Positions 1 to 4,245 of a stretch of 18,880 nt of DNA are shown here, piece after piece. Numbering within the stretch: the first letter of the stretch is position 1; every line of letters begins with the position of its first letter. The stretch comes from a virus (Duplodnaviria; Heunggongvirae; Uroviricota; Caudoviricetes). The stretch spans positions 1 to 18,880 of IMG/VR virus record IMGVR_UViG_2740892422_000003. One strand, written 5' to 3'. Both the position numbers and the translations under genes were made by a program. The notes beneath the pieces were generated by a model, which was given only the letters and a program-made list of their open reading frames with translations, searched no databases and was not told where the DNA came from.

Positions 1-50
1 TTGGTGGAGCTGGCGGGAGTTGAACCCGCGTCCGAAATTCCTACATCCTC
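1..50 (-). repeat. Left att direct repeat: 50-nt copy of the 3' end of the tmRNA gene ssrA, antisense on the + strand (displaced partial copy)
   Basis: Bases 1-50 are identical to 18831-18880. The reverse complement reads GAGGATGTAGGAATTTCGGACGCGGGTTCAACTCCCGCCAGCTCCACCA, the T-arm and acceptor CCA end of the tRNA-like domain of tmRNA. Sequence from 51 onward is AT-rich island DNA, not ssrA body. Confidence 0.85.
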
Positions 51-129
51 TTACATAGTATGGGAAAACAAAGCATTACCATATAAATCAATGTGTTGAT
101 TGACACTGACTAACAGTGCTTAACAGTCG

Positions 130-1143
130 CTAACACTCTGCATGGACATTTTGTGGATCTTTTTTGCTGATTTTTAACTTAATGAACTGAGGAACGCTTG
201 CGTCAATTGTAGTGTGATATTGAAATAAGGGGGATTTTCTATCACGATTATTGATTGAATAACTTATTATATCCTTCATAAGTAGCACAAAGTCAGTGGT
301 GAAATTATATTCAAGTATCTCAACCATTTTTAAATGAAAGTGCCAGTATGATTGTAGATATTTTTTTATATCCAATTCATCCGAAAATTTTGTTTTTAAG
401 AATAAAATATATTCATCTTCACCGTGGGTTGAGCACTGATAGAGTTTTTCAATATCTAAACGCTTTAGTCCATAAAGGTTGTGCAATAATTCTAATAGTT
501 TTTCAATGCTATGTATATGGGTGTATAACTCTGTATAGTCATTAATTTCTTCTTTTTTAAATAGTTCAACTAGTTGGCACCAAATTAATTCTGCATTTTG
601 TATGTAGTCCTTGGAAGCATCAAAATTATTATTAGTAGTTGAAGCATAAGGATAGCATTTACGATATGTAGAATAACAATTTTCAAATTCTAATTTTGCG
701 TTCTTTTTTATCAAAGGAATGTCTAAAGATTCAAGATGTTGTAATGCTTCTATAGTGTTTTTTCTATGGGTATAGAAAAAATCCACTTTGTTTTTCTTTT
801 CTGCTTCTTTGATTTGTTTATCTGTTTGTATTGTTCGATGAATATTATTGACAACTACTCCCAGTGGAATCGATAAAGATAAAACAGCTAAAGGAAGTTT
901 ACTAATGTTTAGGAAATTATTAAATCCTTCCGTATCGATTTGAACATTGTGACCATTCCATGCAACAAATCCGAGCAGAAAAAAACTAATTATTGGAATT
1001 GCCAGTGCGGCTTTGAATAATGGTTGATGCGTAAGAGGTTCAGCATTCATCTTGAATGCATTTATCTTGAATAAATAACCCATGTAAACAACCACAAATA
1101 AAATGTTAAATAAAACGATGCATTGATTGATTGTAAGGTTCAT
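130..1143 (-). CDS. Hypothetical membrane-anchored protein (337 aa), low-GC cargo gene directly downstream of the integrase
   Basis: Long ORF with hydrophobic N-terminal segments (CIVLFNILFVVVYMGYLF, LFKAALAIPIISFFLLGFVAW, LPLAVLSLSIPLGVVV) followed by a roughly 250-aa soluble domain rich in K/E/Y/N. Same strand as int with a 6-nt gap. Much more AT-rich than the phage core. No family recognised. Confidence 0.7.
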   Translation of the reverse strand: MNLTINQCIVLFNILFVVVYMGYLFKINAFKMNAEPLTHQPLFKAALAIPIISFFLLGFVAWNGHNVQIDTEGFNNFLNISKLPLAVLSLSIPLGVVVNNIHRTIQTDKQIKEAEKKNKVDFFYTHRKNTIEALQHLESLDIPLIKKNAKLEFENCYSTYRKCYPYASTTNNNFDASKDYIQNAELIWCQLVELFKKEEINDYTELYTHIHSIEKLLELLHNLYGLKRLDIEKLYQCSTHGEDEYILFLKTKFSDELDIKKYLQSYWHFHLKMVEILEYNFTTDFVLLMKDIISYSINNRDRKSPLFQYHTTIDASVPQFIKLKISKKDPQNVHAEC

Positions 1144-1149
1144 TTTTCT

Positions 1150-2163
1150 CTAAATTATTAATGATAAAGGATTTTTTGTTATTACATCTTCAAGATGCGT
1201 TGGCGCAAAGTGAGCATAGATCATAGTCATTTTTATATCTGAATGGCCTAAAATCTCTTTAAGAACAAGTATGTTTCCGCCATTCATCATAAAGTGGCTG
1301 GCAAATGTATGTCGTAATACATGTGTACACTGGCCTTCAGGCAGTACAATCCCCGCTTTAGCTACAGTACGCTCGAAAGTTTTACGGCACGGGGCAAACA
1401 ATTGGCCTCGTTTTTTTGGTATCTCGTTATAAAGCTCTTTTGAGATAGGTATAGAACGTACCTTTCTACTTTTCGTATTTTTGTAAGTGATACGGTATGG
1501 CGTAACTTGAGAGCCTTCTAGATTTTCCGCTTCACTCCACCTTGCACCGGTAGCAAGGCAAATCTTAGTGATGATGAGAACGTGCGGGCTATTAGATTCG
1601 GATAAATATTGTAAAAGAGTTTTGATTTCTTCTGAATAAAGAAAAGAAACCATTTTTTCATCAACTTTAAAGGTTGGAATTCCTGCCAATGGATTTGGAA
1701 GCGACCAATGGCCTAGTTTTTTTAGTGTACCAAATACGGCAGATAGATAGCGTTGCTCATGATTTACTGTCCGTGGTTGTATCGGCATACAACGTCCATT
1801 TATATCCGGAATTTCACCCTTTAAGCGACCTTCTCTGTATTGGCTGAAATCCGCCGCTGTGATTTGTGCTGCAATCGGATTTCCCATACCAGCACAAATA
1901 CCTTTCAATTTCGACATCATGCGGTCGGCATCTGCTAATGTTCGACCATATAGATCATGCCACTGCTCAATCAGATCTGATAAGCGTCGATTATCTTGCT
2001 TCTCACCCAGCCAGGGTTTGCCTTCCATTTCGCTGGCGATATATTTTTCATATGCCAGTGCTTCACCTTTCGTGGCGAATTTTTTACGAATACGCTTACC
2101 TTTCACCCCATTAGGGCGAAGATCGCACAACCATTCACCGCTTTCGATTTTCCGAACTGCCAT
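1150..2163 (-). CDS. int: Tyrosine site-specific integrase (P2/186 Int-like)
   Basis: 337-aa ORF. The C-terminal region carries tyrosine-recombinase signatures (HVLRHTFASHF and LGHSDIKMTMIYAHF with the catalytic Tyr). It lies next to the att repeat and the CI gene abuts it, as in P2/186. Confidence 0.93.
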   Translation of the reverse strand: MAVRKIESGEWLCDLRPNGVKGKRIRKKFATKGEALAYEKYIASEMEGKPWLGEKQDNRRLSDLIEQWHDLYGRTLADADRMMSKLKGICAGMGNPIAAQITAADFSQYREGRLKGEIPDINGRCMPIQPRTVNHEQRYLSAVFGTLKKLGHWSLPNPLAGIPTFKVDEKMVSFLYSEEIKTLLQYLSESNSPHVLIITKICLATGARWSEAENLEGSQVTPYRITYKNTKSRKVRSIPISKELYNEIPKKRGQLFAPCRKTFERTVAKAGIVLPEGQCTHVLRHTFASHFMMNGGNILVLKEILGHSDIKMTMIYAHFAPTHLEDVITKNPLSLII

Positions 2164-2738
2164 TACTCACTCACTAAGTATGTGGCCACAACCTTCCCAA
2201 TCAATTGCACATCAGATACGTCGCAATCAACTGGATATTTTCCCCAGTCAATCCGCAATTTGTTACCAGGAAGTAACGTCAATTCTTTGATGCTTTTCGT
2301 ACCAGAATACTCAAGAAGGAACTTACCGTCCGTAACAGGGTAATCAGCGATATCTACGAAAAATCTCACTGAACTATCACTGATTATTTGAAGTTCACCT
2401 TTGTAGTTGGGGAGTATTGTCTTATCGAAAATTACGGATGCTTGGCGAACCATATCAGACCCTTCGATTTTATAGGCTGAGATTCGAGTGGTATCACTTG
2501 CCACCTGATCAAATCTAACGCCATCACCAGTGGTTAGCCAGTAGATAGAAGCTCCTGTTTCTAGAGCACAAAGTAGTACTAAATCAGCAGGAAAGTTGTC
2601 ACGCATGATACGTGTACTTAAAGCACTTGGAGACATTCCAAGATAATTTGCTAACTGCATTCTGGATGTAAAACCATAAGCCTCACACACCCTTTCGATT
2701 GCTTCGCGTGCACCTGTCTTGATGTTGTAAGTTGTCAT
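2163..2738 (-). CDS. cI: CI-type immunity repressor (phage 186 CI-like), about 191 aa from the internal ATG
   Basis: Sequence from the internal Met (MTTYNIKTGAREAIERVCEAYGFTSRMQLANYLGMSPSALSTRIMRDNFPADLVLLCALETGASIYWLTTGDG) has an N-terminal HTH-like region and the size of 186 CI. Its stop overlaps the int start by 1 nt. The track ORF extends to 2852, but that 38-codon extension overlaps the operator/promoter region, so the ATG at 2736-2738 is preferred. Confidence 0.8.
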   Translation of the reverse strand: MTTYNIKTGAREAIERVCEAYGFTSRMQLANYLGMSPSALSTRIMRDNFPADLVLLCALETGASIYWLTTGDGVRFDQVASDTTRISAYKIEGSDMVRQASVIFDKTILPNYKGELQIISDSSVRFFVDIADYPVTDGKFLLEYSGTKSIKELTLLPGNKLRIDWGKYPVDCDVSDVQLIGKVVATYLVSE

Positions 2739-2889
2739 GTTTGTAGTTCGCAACTGTTGACAAACGACAATTTTAAAAATAATCTCTGAATTGTTTCGAA
2801 TGTAGATATTGATAATTGTCGTTTGTAGATTATTAACAACTATTGTCACCAACGCTCATTAGTGACAAACGAATGAGGAATTTTGCCGT
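2739..2889. promoter_or_regulatory. Lysis-lysogeny switch region with repeated operator-like motifs and a rightward promoter
   Basis: Between divergent cI and the early operon. An 8-9 bp motif GTTTGTAG / GACAAACG occurs in both orientations at about 2739-2746, 2757-2767, 2817-2828 and 2864-2871. A TTGACA (2757-2762), 17-nt spacer, TAATCT (2780-2785) arrangement is a sigma70-like promoter pointing toward the early operon. Confidence 0.55.
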
Positions 2890-3078
2890 ATGCAAACTAA
2901 AGCTGCAACACATTCAGAAAGCAGGTGGGTACCTCTGAAAACGTTTTGCGACAGGGTTGAAATAAAACTGCGCACGGGACGTTACTGGGTACACACTGGC
3001 AAACTCAAAATCAAACCTAAAAGCAAACCGAAAGAACATGTGTTTGTAGATTGGCTTGCGTGGAACAGTGAAAAGTAA
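2890..3078 (+). CDS. Small basic DNA-binding protein, Cro/Apl/Cox-like (62 aa)
   Basis: First gene of the rightward early operon, divergent from cI. Small and basic (KLKIKPKSKPKEH). The call rests on synteny with 186 apl and P2 cox, not on recognised sequence similarity. Confidence 0.5.
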   Translation: MQTKAATHSESRWVPLKTFCDRVEIKLRTGRYWVHTGKLKIKPKSKPKEHVFVDWLAWNSEK

Positions 3079-3121
3079 TCATCACTTTTAGTGATTTTGA
3101 GATTGGGATGGAAGAAAAACA

Positions 3122-3625
3122 ATGTTTGATTACCAGACCTCTAAACATGCGCACTTTGATGCGGCTTGCCGAGCATTTGCAATTGAGCACAATCTTGAAG
3201 ATGTGGCCGCTGCCGTTGGTATGAGGCCGCAGATCCTGCGCAACAAACTGAACCCAGCACAACCGCACCGCCTGACCTGTGATGAGCTTTTGGCTATCAC
3301 GGATTACACCGAAGATGCGCGTTTGCTTGATGGAATGTTAGGTCAGATTAACTGCCTTCCATCCGTGCCGGTGAACAATGCCACAGAAGGCAACATGCAG
3401 TTGTGCGCACTGAGTGCCACAGCCTGTGTGGGCGCGATTGCTGGGGAAGCCGTATCAACTGGCCATATGACTGCCGCCCGCCGTACTCAAATTCTGGATC
3501 GTGCCCGCGATGCAATCCGTAGCTTATCCGTGCTGGCTTATACCGTTGAAAGCCGTATTCACTCTGCGCCTGTTCTGGCCGCTGCGGTGGATCTGGCCAC
3601 AACCAACGCCACCGGCCTGATGTGA
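3122..3625 (+). CDS. cII: CII-like phage regulatory protein (phage 186 CII family)
   Basis: 167 aa, beginning MFDYQTSKHAHFDAACRAFAIEHNLEDVAAAVGMRPQILRNKLNP, with a predicted HTH. Same position and size as 186 CII. Confidence 0.75.
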   Translation: MFDYQTSKHAHFDAACRAFAIEHNLEDVAAAVGMRPQILRNKLNPAQPHRLTCDELLAITDYTEDARLLDGMLGQINCLPSVPVNNATEGNMQLCALSATACVGAIAGEAVSTGHMTAARRTQILDRARDAIRSLSVLAYTVESRIHSAPVLAAAVDLATTNATGLM

Positions 3626-3634
3626 GGGAACACC

Positions 3635-3808
3635 ATGAAAGCGTTTGTCACTTACCTGAAAAAAGAATCACCAGACATGCAGTTGCCGAGTGGTTCAACG
3701 GGATGGATAGAACTTCCGAACGGTCAGCGCTGGAACCCTGGCCACATGTACAAATTCAATGGCCAGCAGCCGCGTCGCCCATGGTGGCGTCGTCTGATGG
3801 GGCTATAG
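3635..3808 (+). CDS. Small hypothetical early protein (57 aa), not in the ORF track
   Basis: ATG at 3635 is preceded by GAGGGAA about 7 nt upstream, immediately after the cII stop. Translation is MKAFVTYLKKESPDMQLPSGSTGWIELPNGQRWNPGHMYKFNGQQPRRPWWRRLMGL. The overlapping frame (track ORF 3622..) gives a W/P-rich sequence that looks like out-of-frame noise. Confidence 0.4.
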   Translation: MKAFVTYLKKESPDMQLPSGSTGWIELPNGQRWNPGHMYKFNGQQPRRPWWRRLMGL

Positions 3809-3816
3809 GGGGCGTT

Positions 3817-4245
3817 ATGGCGATTAGCCAGGAACAGCAAAAGCGCGGGTTGGAGCATTGTAAAAGAATGCGTCTTCAGATCAACCCAGCCTACAGCGAT
3901 GCGGGGGACTGGTGGGACAACTTGACACCAGAGTGGCGCGGCGTGGTGCTTCATGCTGCTGCTGTTACTTCAGGTGCCGGGGTATTTAAAGCCCACTTAA
4001 GCAAATGCTGCTGGCAGGAACTTTATGAACGTCTGGGATATCGGGACATGATTCAACTACGACGGGGTATTTCACGGGCGCGCTTAACGTTCGAAGGTTT
4101 CGGCAGTTTACGTGACAGCGATTTTTCAAAGCGCACCGCGAACCGCCCGATCAAAAAGGCACATCCAATTTATAGCAGTAGCGGGGTGCAGATGGTGATC
4201 GCGCCTCATATCGTCCATAAGTTCCAGCAACAGGGGAATCACTAA
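3817..4245 (+). CDS. Hypothetical early protein (142 aa)
   Basis: Internal ATG of the track ORF 3622..4245, preceded by a G-rich RBS-like run. Its stop overlaps the start of the next ORF (ATGA). The start is ambiguous; in-frame ATGs at 3703 and 3781 are alternatives. Confidence 0.5.
   Translation: MAISQEQQKRGLEHCKRMRLQINPAYSDAGDWWDNLTPEWRGVVLHAAAVTSGAGVFKAHLSKCCWQELYERLGYRDMIQLRRGISRARLTFEGFGSLRDSDFSKRTANRPIKKAHPIYSSSGVQMVIAPHIVHKFQQQGNH

Follow-up and report, generated by a model that had tools for sequence, protein, structure and literature searches.

A likely 186/HP1-type lysis-lysogeny switch at ssrA with candidate asymmetric repressor operators around face-to-face promoters

In 186 and P2-like phages, the excisionase binds a row of direct repeats between two facing promoters and represses both. 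The excisionase sites, direct repeats spaced by one helical turn, are located at att as well as between pR and pL (PMC7498355), and the arm sites of P2-type integrases follow the consensus tgTGGaCa (PMC3448106). The helix-turn-helix of 186 CI reads two distinct sequences according to Shearwin et al. 2002, as cited in PMC3675496. The Pe-Pc switch of P2 also consists of face-to-face promoters, with Cox-type direct repeats in the switch and at att, and in Haemophilus phage HP1 two tandem rightward promoters (PR1/PR2) face PL and Cox is both excisionase and repressor. The sequenced phage closest to the prophage analyzed here is Cronobacter phage ESSI-2 (Seongnamvirus), for the switch of which no functional study was found in the literature.

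The stretch of DNA analyzed in this work (18,880 nucleotides; hereafter, the window) constitutes the left end of a prophage of the 186/HP1 type (Peduoviridae) that is integrated in ssrA, the 3' end of which occupies positions 1-50. From the left, the prophage encodes int, cI, the switch, a Cox/Apl-like excisionase and cII, and positions 2736-2908 most likely represent the switch between lysis and lysogeny of a 186/HP1-type temperate phage, with pR and pL face to face. The initial annotation had recognized the switch between cI and the early operon of a 186-type phage, an assignment borne out by the Phage_CI_repr and Phage_CI_C domains of the repressor, the CP76 domain of CII and the Cox-like excisionase. 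For comparison, we used 27 distinct related switch regions whose CI proteins are 71-99% identical to that of the window, and altogether roughly 35 natural variants of the switch (TGTAG, TGTCG and TGTCAC types) were found; these relatives are not independent samples.

The locus shares with coliphage 186 the gene order int-cI-switch-apl-cII, the convergent promoters and the placement of pL relative to the apl ATG. As in 186, the candidate repressor sites run from the cI start codon across pR in the direction of pL, with further candidates some 300 bp to the left and right, and a palindrome similar to FR lies where FR does in 186; the putative excisionase motif is seen in the switch as well as at att. 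Whereas 186 CI binds inverted repeats of 17-19 bp, the candidate sites of the window have an asymmetric TGT(A/C)G motif and differ in orientation among themselves, the predicted promoter starts are about 81 bp apart (62 bp in 186), Apl consists of 62 aa with TTAACA-type sites (87 aa and TTGGCA-type sites in 186), and the prophage is located at ssrA with P2-type Int arm sites, whereas 186 inserts in a tRNA-Ile gene. In ESSI-2, the CI protein is 78% identical to that of the window, the switch can be aligned at 72% nucleotide identity with the same block of O1, -35 and O2 and the same pR and pL, and the ssrA insertion and att-arm layout are shared; it differs in a longer Apl-type protein, another cII type and GTCACGTTTGGTTAAC at the FR position. 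HP1 encodes a CI of the same family (32% identity), and the -10 and -35 of its PL are placed equally to the cox ATG, as is the dual role of Cox shared, but its tandem rightward promoters and different host clade set it apart. The face-to-face promoters, the Cox-type direct repeats and the P2-type Int arm sites are all shared with P2, but the P2 repressor C is a small unrelated protein that acts on two direct repeats flanking the Pe -10, and P2 lacks cII; membership in the P2-type switches was rejected, the repressor being of the 186 CI type (191 aa) and cII being present.

The immunity repressor gene cI occupies positions 2163-2738 on the minus strand (191 aa, start ATG 2736-2738) and was identified by Pfam domains, BLASTP and PDB matches. 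Phage_CI_repr (PF07022) covers residues 12-73 (1.8e-24) and Phage_CI_C (PF16452) residues 87-184 (5.5e-16); the protein is 35% identical to 186 CI over 178 aa (BLASTP, E=5e-39) and matches the structures 2FJR (E=1e-31) and 2FKD (E=4e-11). Thus, by all three approaches, the repressor has both the N-terminal helix-turn-helix and the C-terminal oligomerization domain of 186 CI, and the homology to the 186 CI structures spans the full length, including the wheel-forming C-terminal domain. This domain is homologous to the 2FKD 14-mer, and the repressor may assemble into a 14-mer wheel that wraps and loops operator DNA. The recognition helix, SPSALSTRIMRD, differs from that of 186 CI (SSSLSNRYTRG). 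A shorter cI start, as had been proposed, is supported because the upstream extension of the reading frame is not conserved in the relatives: the long ORF would begin at TTG 2852, but a stop codon is found 5 codons upstream of cI in a 99%-identical relative and 12 codons upstream in group B, leaving the ATG at 2738. The RefSeq record of ESSI-2 carries an over-long CI of 305 aa that overlaps cox, and such prophages are poorly annotated in databases. The main value of the present analysis lies in annotation, namely in fixing the cI start and placing pR, pL, the likely operators, the excisionase sites and the CII site.

Convergent lytic and lysogenic promoters are present, at the sequence level, between cI and the first lytic gene, with a geometry as in characterized relatives. 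The rightward TTGACA-N17-TAATCT promoter reported in the initial annotation is real and conserved, and corresponds to the lytic promoter pR (2757-2785, plus strand; -35 TTGACA at 2757-2762, 17-bp spacer, -10 TAATCT at 2780-2785), with a predicted start near 2792. Its -10 matches the consensus at only three of six positions, which is why a promoter scan omitted it; nevertheless, TTGACA is invariant and TA...T is retained at the 17-bp spacing in every relative as well as in an E. coli prophage of unrelated immunity, and the placement of pR relative to cI is that of the annotated 186 pR. Facing pR is the lysogenic promoter pL (2880-2908, minus strand; -10 CAAAAT at 2880-2885, -35 TTGCAG at 2903-2908, 17-bp spacer), which was absent from the earlier reading of the switch and would start near 2873, about 81 bp from the pR start. 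The pL -10 ends 4 nt before the apl/cox ATG and the -35 begins 13 nt after its A, a spacing identical to that of the annotated 186 pL and HP1 PL, and ATTTTGCC and GCAAC are invariant in this region among the relatives. The consensus scan yielded a leftward candidate (TTGTCA 2868-2863, 18 bp, AATAGT), but group B does not retain it, and the pL placed by homology was preferred.

All repeat strings reported for the switch were recovered where they had been described: GTTTGTAG at 2739-2746 and 2821-2828, with a third copy at 3042-3049, beyond the interval 2739-2889, and GACAAACG at 2759-2766 and 2864-2871. The two strings, however, are not complements of each other as had been stated (the reverse complement of GTTTGTAG is CTACAAAC) and have in common only the 6-mer GTTTGT/ACAAAC. 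The proposed motif of 8-9 bp with at least four copies in 150 bp thus exists as strings, but its literal repetition is only modestly above chance: among 2000 dinucleotide-preserving shuffles of 2739-2889, some 6-mer occurred at least four times in 157 and some 8-mer at least three times in 25. Moreover, the motif as defined lumps two things together, with relatives losing GTTTGT/ACAAACG at O4 and at 2864. The unit that is conserved across the 27 distinct relatives is not GTTTGTAG or GACAAACG but a TGT(A/C)G core. It is the retention of these cores at four fixed alignment positions across 27 switch regions that makes the repeat signal decisive. The sites of this family are asymmetric, share the TGT(A/C)G core and have a consensus of about TCGTTTGTAG(A/T)T. 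Taken together, TGTAG, TGTCG and TGTCA occur 8 times in 2736-2872, compared with 0.62 expected from the window-wide rate; this count, for a pattern picked after the data were seen, was reached in none of 3000 local shuffles and marks the densest spot of the 18.9-kb window. When a matrix built from the relatives only was scanned over about 37,700 positions of the window, the top six matches all fell inside 2397-3052 (656 bp), two of them being distal sites outside the training set.

Four candidate CI operators were delineated in the switch. O1 (ATGTTTGTAGTTC, 2737-2749, plus strand; core TGTAG at 2742-2746) is the best matrix match of the window (15.6 bits), lies at about -48 from the predicted pR start, adjoining the cI start codon, and retains the block TTTGTaGTTC in 25 of the 27 distinct relatives. 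O1 also overlaps the expected ribosome-binding region of cI, which could alone account for its conservation. A CII half-site, ATGTTTG, that overlaps O1 was set aside as a coincidence, being lost in relatives with the same CII type (CATTTTTG, CATCTTTG). O2 (2762-2774; AAAATTGTCGTTT on the minus strand, plus-strand core CGACA at 2765-2769) is inverted, sits in the pR spacer beside the -35, ranks fourth in the window and is kept in relatives as AACGACAA or AACTACAA; the group B version repeats O1 exactly in the opposite orientation (TTTGTAGTT ... AACTACAAA), so that O1 and O2 form a perfect inverted repeat with 9-bp arms around the -35. O3 (TCGAATGTAGATA, 2796-2808, plus strand; core TGTAG at 2801-2805, about +12 of pR) is a weaker candidate, with a matrix score of 8.6 (rank 13 in the window) and a TGTAG column kept in most relatives. 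O4 (ATAATTGTCGTTTGTAGATT, 2812-2831, plus strand) is a pair of sites with cores TGTCG at 2817-2821 and TGTAG at 2824-2828 that yield the second- and fifth-best matches of the window; the core (T/A)(G/A)T(A/C)G is kept in relatives 22-23 bp from O3, and a perfect 13-bp inverted repeat (I1) pairs 2814-2826 with 2760-2772. The O1-O2 and O3-O4 spacings of 22-23 bp match the two-turn operator spacing in 186 (PMC3675496), but O2 and O3 are 37 bp apart. O3 and O4 are also roughly in phase with an att-type array located downstream.

Copies of the motif recur on both sides of the switch. To the left, ACCTTTGTAGTTG (2397-2409, plus strand) lies inside cI, over the codons N-Y-K, 340 bp from O1 at a position comparable to 186 FL, and is the sixth-best matrix match in the window, outside the training positions. 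Relatives with a TGTAG-type switch have TTGTAG at -335 (TAC AAA) or -348 (CTA CAA), and both cI-internal sites are missing in lineages without TGTAG in the switch. CTA-CAA is invariant amid varying neighboring codons although CTA makes up 12.5% of the Leu codons overall, and the cI-internal site is kept through synonymous drift. To the right, about 300 bp from O1, GTGTTTGTAGATT (3040-3052, plus strand) covers the last codons of apl (F-V-D), resembles FR in placement and is the third-best match in the window, again outside the training set; this site reads (T/A)TGTAGAT in groups A and B and in relative L016, and TTGTCGAT in relative L018, the switch cores of which are TGTCG. The distal sites fall in codons of conserved residues (NYK, ELQ, FVD), so part of their conservation is due to the protein. 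The distances of 300-340 bp on either side appear to match the FL/pR/FR layout of the 186 CI sites. In group C, with the palindrome TAGTGTTCAT, a search for distal copies as a family-wide check of the FL/FR layout gave no convincing ones.

Just past the apl stop codon, at the 186 FR position, there is a palindrome, ATCAC-TTTTA-GTGAT (3081-3095), the only perfect ATCAC-N5-GTGAT in the window, which resembles 186 FR (ATTCACTTTATGTGAAT). It is kept as (A/G)(T/A)CAC-N5-GTGA(T/A/C) in relatives L014, L016, L018 and L025 and replaced in group B by a copy of the motif, TAGTAGTTCG. The presence of either a palindrome or a motif copy at this position is consistent with 186 CI reading two sequences. A palindrome with two mismatches in cI (2523-2537) was left uncounted; it encodes the conserved WLTTGDG. 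Further to the right, cII (CDS 3122-3625; CP76, PF06892, E=1e-46) follows the Cox/Apl-type gene that opens the lytic operon and begins with a predicted CII binding site for pE, ATGTTTG-N13-TAAACAT (3122-3148), which corresponds in sequence and spacing to the annotated 186 site ATGTTTG-N13-CAAACAT at the start of cII.

On balance, we consider it probable that the TGT(A/C)G sites O1-O4 are the CI operators of a 186-type switch with face-to-face pR and pL. The initial annotation had proposed a CI operator set at the lytic promoter, and the motifs over and flanking pR are indeed the best candidates, but pL and the outlying copies had been missed. With regard to the mechanism, for which we infer the pairing of protein and sites, looping and wheel formation, pR would drive apl-cII and the early lytic genes rightward and pL (2908-2880) would drive cI-int leftward, so that transcripts from the facing starts would collide. 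CI bound to O1, upstream of the -35, and to the inverted O2 in the spacer would occlude pR, and the direct copies O3 and O4, downstream of the start, would extend the CI complex towards pL at roughly two-turn spacing. The distal copies at 2397-2409 and 3040-3052 and the palindrome at 3081-3095 might act as FL and FR do, with looping as an aid to repression and pE as a further target.

The comparison with the operators of 186, taken from the annotated GenBank record, had been suggested as a check; it revealed no sequence similarity at pR. The immunity specificity differs from that of 186. Neither A-type (ATTCAC-N5-GTGAAT) nor B-type (TCTCTCAATTGGGAGA-like) inverted repeats of 186 were detected in 2736-2800, the sole resemblance to the A type being that of the palindrome ATCACTTTTAGTGAT at the FR position. 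The asymmetry and mixed orientation of the sites, as opposed to the inverted repeats bound by 186 CI, speak against their being CI operators. A more far-reaching and tentative possibility is that a 186-type 'wheel' repressor reads asymmetric TGT(A/C)G sites in either orientation, spread across both promoters for about 130 bp and repeated farther out within the coding sequences of cI and apl, and perhaps also a palindrome like those of the 186 A type at the FR position. In that case, each of the two N-terminal domains of a CI dimer would contact its site independently of the other, whether the sites are direct or inverted, and the roughly 35 natural variants would lend themselves, as a natural series, to tests of the wrapping and looping model for 186 CI and to the study of how immunity specificity shifts while the recognition helix stays the same. 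The separation of CI from Apl by covariation of helix and motif was tried and proved uninformative: in group E, the recognition helices of both CI and Apl are identical to those of TGTAG-type relatives, yet TGTCAC is found in place of TGTAG.

The principal alternative, which appears rather unlikely, is that the repeats are bound, in part or in full, by the Apl/Cox-like excisionase instead of CI. The excisionase gene (2890-3078, plus strand; Shine-Dalgarno GAGGA at 2875-2879) is the first of the lytic operon, in the position of 186 apl, and encodes a 62-aa protein that matches PHROG 575, 'Cox-like excisionase and repressor' (E=3.6e-14), with a weak match to P2 Cox (4LHF, E=1). The excisionase motif was defined, independently of the switch, from the att arm (86-158, plus strand), which comprises an IHF-like site (86-98), four direct repeats exactly 10 bp apart (TTGACAC 100, CTAACAG 110, TTAACAG 120 and CTAACAC 130, spanning 100-136) that are conserved in all relatives, and P2-type Int arm sites (TGGACA 143-148, TGTGGAT 152-158); this gap-free layout is common to all relatives inserted at ssrA. 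In the switch, a candidate array of the same type, with 9-10 bp phasing, lies at 2833-2868 (plus strand; TTAACAA 2833, TTGTCAC 2843, a weak unit at 2853 and GTGACAA 2862), and matches of the att-arm matrix at offsets 97, 107, (117) and 126 are in phase across the relatives. Only two units are good in the window, and the array is clearer in ESSI-2-like relatives, with TTAACA/TTGCCA/ATGACA/GTGACA in ESSI-2 itself; over the window, the excisionase matrix gives 105 matches above 6 bits and carries too little information for use alone. Excisionase binding to some of the reported repeats would accord with the seven Apl sites that fill the pR-pL interval of 186, with the O3/O4 direct repeats in that interval, roughly phased with the array 2833-2868, and with the TGACA contained in the second and fourth reported copies, which matches att-arm units (TTGACAC at 100 and GTGACAA-type units in relatives). 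Excisionases also have relaxed specificity and spread onto adjacent DNA (PMC7498355). For the TGT(A/C)G sites, however, this explanation meets several obstacles. The att arms, where an excisionase must bind, contain neither TGTAG nor TGTCG in the window or in any relative, and C and A at positions 5-6 of the att matrix are the most conserved, whereas TGTAG has A-G there. O3 and O4 are separated by 23 bp instead of 10-11 bp and have no unit between them, O1, O2 and the copies in cI and apl lie outside any phased direct array, and the immunity groups differ in the switch motif but not in the att motif.

The Apl-like excisionase probably binds a separate 10-bp-phased TTAACA/TGACA-type array at 2833-2868 with the motif used at att. 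Units 2 and 4 of this array are the arms of a conserved 26-bp dyad, TTGTCAC-N12-GTGACAA (2843-2868); the fourth reported copy of the repeat (2864-2871), in the right arm of the dyad and in the array, is not assignable to CI. The inner pairs of the dyad covary, and it folds on both strands, the minus-strand RNA of the window reaching -12.7 kcal/mol (z -3.8). An Rfam scan of 2500-3300 returned only a sub-threshold match to mir-240 (24.7 bits, with a gathering score of 67.5), which was taken as chance.

Still less probable is that the repeats have no operator role, being T/G-rich low-complexity intergenic DNA that is conserved on account of other signals, such as the -35 and upstream region of pR, the cI translation start, coding constraints at the distal sites and a structural hairpin. 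Such an explanation gains from the recurrence of a 6-mer four times in 8% of the local shuffles, from the adjacency of O1 to the cI start codon, the overlap of O2 with the promoter and the conserved residues encoded by the distal copies, from the hairpin-like covariation of the dyad and from the non-independence of the relatives. It does not account for the density of the core family, unmatched in the 3000 local shuffles, or for the core at O3 and O4, which recurs away from any expected promoter or translation signal and persists despite divergent flanks. At the cI-internal site, an infrequent Leu codon is invariant only where the switch has the motif, and the top six matrix matches cluster within 656 bp. 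We consider it very improbable that the true CI operators are palindromes like those of the 186 A type (TCAC-N5-GTGA as at 3081-3095, or the CAC...GTG dyad at 2843-2868), with the TGTAG sites bound by another, for instance a host, factor: ATCACTTTTAGTGAT does lie exactly at the 186 FR position and resembles FR, and the dyad arms contain GTCAC/GTGAC, but no such palindrome occurs at pR, where repression must take place, group B has a TGTAG-type motif and no palindrome at the FR position, and the N12 spacing of the dyad misfits the N5 geometry.

With O1-O4 as the probable CI operators, the switch is an ordinary example of a well-studied kind, but its immunity specificity has no earlier description. 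The asymmetric motifs and their natural variants amount to a modest comparative resource for specialists on the 186 switch and do not constitute a new mechanism. The immunity type of the window was found in none of 5,426 complete E. coli genomes, although the remaining prophage sequence shows 96% identity with E. coli prophages; taken together, this indicates that the whole att-int-cI-apl module has been exchanged, the boundary lying sharply 5 bp ahead of cII. In an E. coli prophage that shares the cII but has another cI, the pR hexamers are the same, TTCGA-type repeats are present and TGTAG is absent.

On the basis of ORF listing and domain searches, the window is the left end of a 186/HP1-type temperate phage, with an integrase (1150-2163, minus strand), a 191-aa cI repressor carrying both 186-CI Pfam domains (2163-2738, minus) and, beyond a gap of 151 bp, a 62-aa Cox/Apl-like excisionase-repressor (apl; 2890-3078, plus; PHROG 575, E=3.6e-14) and a CP76-family CII (3122-3625). 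The repressor is 35% identical to 186 CI across its full length and matches the solved 186 CI structures (2FJR, 1e-31; 2FKD, 4e-11), including the C-terminal domain, which in 186 CI forms a 14-mer wheel and may do so here. The window opens with 50 bases that form the ssrA 3' end, so the prophage is integrated and this is its att-proximal side (ARAGORN reports nothing for ssrA because only the gene end is present). The region between cI and apl is a standard 186-type switch with a previously undescribed immunity specificity. None of 5,426 complete Escherichia coli genomes contains the module at 50-3116 (cargo gene, int, cI, switch and apl; 28-45% GC); the part of the prophage from 3117 on (~55% GC) shares 96% identity with ESSI2_ev015-like prophages in 27 of these genomes, and the sharp mosaic junction (3112-3122), where GC content rises from ~40% to ~55%, lies 5 bp ahead of the cII start.

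Cronobacter phage ESSI-2 (CI 78% and switch DNA 72% identical) is the only close relative in the annotated phage collection, where the remaining phage CI proteins are less than 40% identical; CI protein scans recovered 40 viral contigs and two genome loci (CI 40-100% identical). The alignment of 27 distinct switch regions (CI 71-99% identical) reveals CAT.TTTGTaGTTC where cI starts, next an invariant GTTGACAAAC.ACAA block that contains the -35 hexamer, TA...T exactly 17 bp 3' of this hexamer, a TGTAG core near +12 and another core, (T/A)(G/A)T(A/C)G, 22-25 bp beyond it, TTAAC, the dyad TTGyCAC-N12-GTGrCAA, and an invariant ATTTTGCC.(T/C)ATG ... GCAAC block around the apl start.

The rightward promoter TTGACA-N17-TAATCT described in the initial annotation is present; a consensus scan left it unlisted because its -10 agrees at only three of six positions. 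The leftward promoter had been missed. In 186 and HP1, for which the records annotate, respectively, pR, pL, three CI sites, seven Apl sites, FL, FR, pE and a CII site, and PR1, PR2 and PL, the -10 of the lysogenic promoter ends 4 nt before the apl/cox ATG and the -35 starts 13 nt after the A. At exactly these positions, within the invariant blocks, the minus strand carries a predicted pL with -10 CAAAAT (complement of 2880-2885), -35 TTGCAG (complement of 2903-2908) and a 17-bp spacer, which makes the region, at sequence level, a face-to-face pR/pL pair. The predicted start sites are ~81 bp apart, compared with 62 bp in 186. The 186 CII site at the cII start, ATGTTTG-N13-CAAACAT, has a counterpart at 3122-3148. 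The related locus L034 contains a 7-bp tandem duplication (CAAACTA) that extends the pR spacer to 24 bp; either this prophage is decaying and its lytic promoter has been inactivated, or the assembly is wrong here.

The short cI start proposed initially is correct, but not on account of the operator overlap that was cited for it. The 229-aa reading from TTG 2852 lacks conservation among the relatives: a relative with 99% identity has an in-frame stop five codons 5' of the cI ATG, group B relatives have a stop after 12 codons of the extension and no alternative start, and a 1-bp indel lies inside it in a relative. In the short form, the Pfam domain starts at residue 12; the length of 186 CI is 192 aa. 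There is no Shine-Dalgarno sequence before the cI ATG (2736-2760, minus; upstream mRNA sequence TTGCGAACTACAAAC), as is also the case in 186; the O1 motif sits at the usual position of the ribosome-binding site. For ESSI-2 (NC_047854.1, locus 1914-2831), RefSeq gives a 305-aa CI that overlaps a cox-like gene, and lets cox itself begin too far upstream; a CI of 191 aa from the conserved ATG is what homology and the conservation of the switch point to.

The 8-9 bp motif reported to recur at least four times in 2739-2889 required redefinition. The strings occur where they had been located, but GACAAACG is not the reverse complement of GTTTGTAG, the common part being GTTTGT/ACAAAC only, and the repetition, although present, is modest if taken literally: among 2000 dinucleotide-preserving shuffles of 2739-2889, some 6-mer occurred four times in 157 and some 8-mer three times in 25. 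Relatives do not keep GTTTGT at O4 (they have GAATGTAG, GATTGTCG or GATAGTAG) or ACAAACG at 2864, which leaves the TGT(A/C)G core as the conserved unit; it is found at O1 (2742-2746, plus), O2 (2765-2769, inverted), O3 (2801-2805, plus) and O4 (2817-2821 and 2824-2828, plus). In group B, O2 is a perfect inverted copy of O1, giving TTTGTAGTT-N14-AACTACAAA around the -35. For the pattern TGTAG/TGTCG/TGTCA, which was picked after the data were seen, there are eight occurrences in 2736-2872 against 0.62 expected at the window-wide rate, a count reached in none of 3000 local shuffles, and all top-scoring sliding windows overlap the switch. A 13-bp matrix built from relatives only, leaving out the window and its two near-identical copies, has its best six matches among ~37,700 positions at 2737+, 2819+, 3040+, 2762-, 2812+ and 2397+, two of which (2397-2409 and 3040-3052) are outside the training positions. 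The more distant Pantoea group (CI 40% identical) has an AATATCG direct repeat at 23 bp just 3' of the pR -10, which fits the same geometry.

These cores could be read by CI or by the excisionase, which in this phage family binds the switch too, at direct repeats of the att motif one helical turn apart (PMC7498355). The excisionase motif was defined independently, at att. The att arm has an identical, gap-free layout in the window and every ssrA-inserted relative, with an IHF-like site (86-98), excisionase-type direct repeats exactly 10 bp apart (TTGACAC at 100, CTAACAG at 110, TTAACAG at 120, CTAACAC at 130) and P2-type Int arm sites (TGGACA/TGTGGAT, 143-158; consensus tgTGGaCa, PMC3448106); TGTAG and TGTCG are absent from all of these arms. 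The att motif T(T/G)(A/G)ACA is unchanged in all immunity groups, whereas the switch motif varies: TGTAG in most, TGTCG in the related locus L018, TGTCAC in group E and, for group C, the palindrome TAGTGTTCAT; an E. coli prophage that shares the cII has TTCGA-type repeats. Such behavior is expected of immunity-repressor operators. The recognition helices of both CI and Apl are kept in group E despite its different motif. The 186 CI sites are inverted repeats, whereas the candidate sites here are asymmetric and in mixed orientation.

Within the switch, the att-type matrix detects units in phase at 2833 (TTAACAA), 2843 (TTGTCAC), ~2853 (weak) and 2862 (GTGACAA), an array far clearer in ESSI-2-like relatives (TTAACA/TTGCCA/ATGACA/GTGACA) and group C; 2833-2868 is the best candidate for an Apl-type operator array, and the fourth motif copy of the initial annotation falls inside it. 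The conserved 26-bp dyad 2843-2868, just 3' of the predicted pL start, shows compensatory inner pairs among relatives and folds on both strands in all of them, the leftward RNA being the more stable in the window (-12.7 kcal/mol, z -3.8, versus -6.6 on the plus strand). Its arms are units of the att-type array and also TGTCA members of the core family, and in group E the hexamer TGTCAC occupies O2, O4 and the dyad alike, so that the dyad may belong to the Apl array, be a CI site over pL or act in the RNA as a hairpin at the 5' end of the pL transcript. The equivalent place in L046, an E. coli prophage whose immunity is unrelated, has another dyad, CCTGTA-TTGCCG-TACAGG.

The two matches outside the training positions are candidate distal sites, FL-like (2397-2409, plus; within cI and 340 bp to the left of O1) and FR-like (3040-3052, plus; apl end, ~300 bp right). 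Because the former encodes conserved residues, codon usage was examined. Relatives with a TGTAG-type switch have TTGTAG at -335 (TAC AAA, Tyr-Lys) or -348 (CTA CAA, Leu-Gln); in ~21 distinct cI genes CTA-CAA never varies, but the adjacent codons for Gly, Glu and Ile show synonymous variation, and CTA accounts for 12.5% of all Leu codons in these genes. The three lineages without switch TGTAG (L018 and two group E loci) have TTA or TTG and lack both distal TTGTAG sites. Directly past the apl stop, at 3081-3095, lies ATCACTTTTAGTGAT, the sole perfect match in the window, at the place equivalent to the 186 FR operator ATTCACTTTATGTGAAT. The CAC-N5-GTG palindrome is kept at this position in four related loci (L014, L016, L018 and L025), and group B has a switch-motif copy there, TAGTAGTTCG. 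The helix-turn-helix of 186 CI is reported to recognize two distinct sequences (Shearwin et al. 2002, listed in PMC3675496); the interchange agrees with this and points to CI as a single protein reading palindrome and switch motif alike.

With CI as the reader of the cores, CI on O1 and O2 would occlude pR, where the three CI sites of the 186 record likewise begin at the cI start codon, and O3 and O4 would extend the complex toward pL. The O3-O4 spacing of 22-23 bp resembles that of the operators in 186, which is two turns (PMC3675496). Looping would let the FL-like and FR-like copies assist, the palindrome at the FR position overlaps the predicted pE start, and the Apl-like protein would act on 2833-2868 and the att arm.

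In relatives, ssrA lies 130 bp or ~1.0-1.2 kb past int, which implies a variable cargo slot between att and int that may contain a moron or defence gene. A 337-aa ORF occupies this interval in the window (130-1143, minus; 28-30% GC); it matches PHROG 17460 (unknown function) and yielded no match in Pfam and PADLOC searches. Beyond cII, the PHROG match of a 207-aa ORF with a GTG start (3622-4245) is confined to residues 76-204, so its real start is probably further downstream, and a 57-aa ORF (3635-3808) takes the place behind cII at which the E. coli relatives have an annotated Fil-family filamentation protein.
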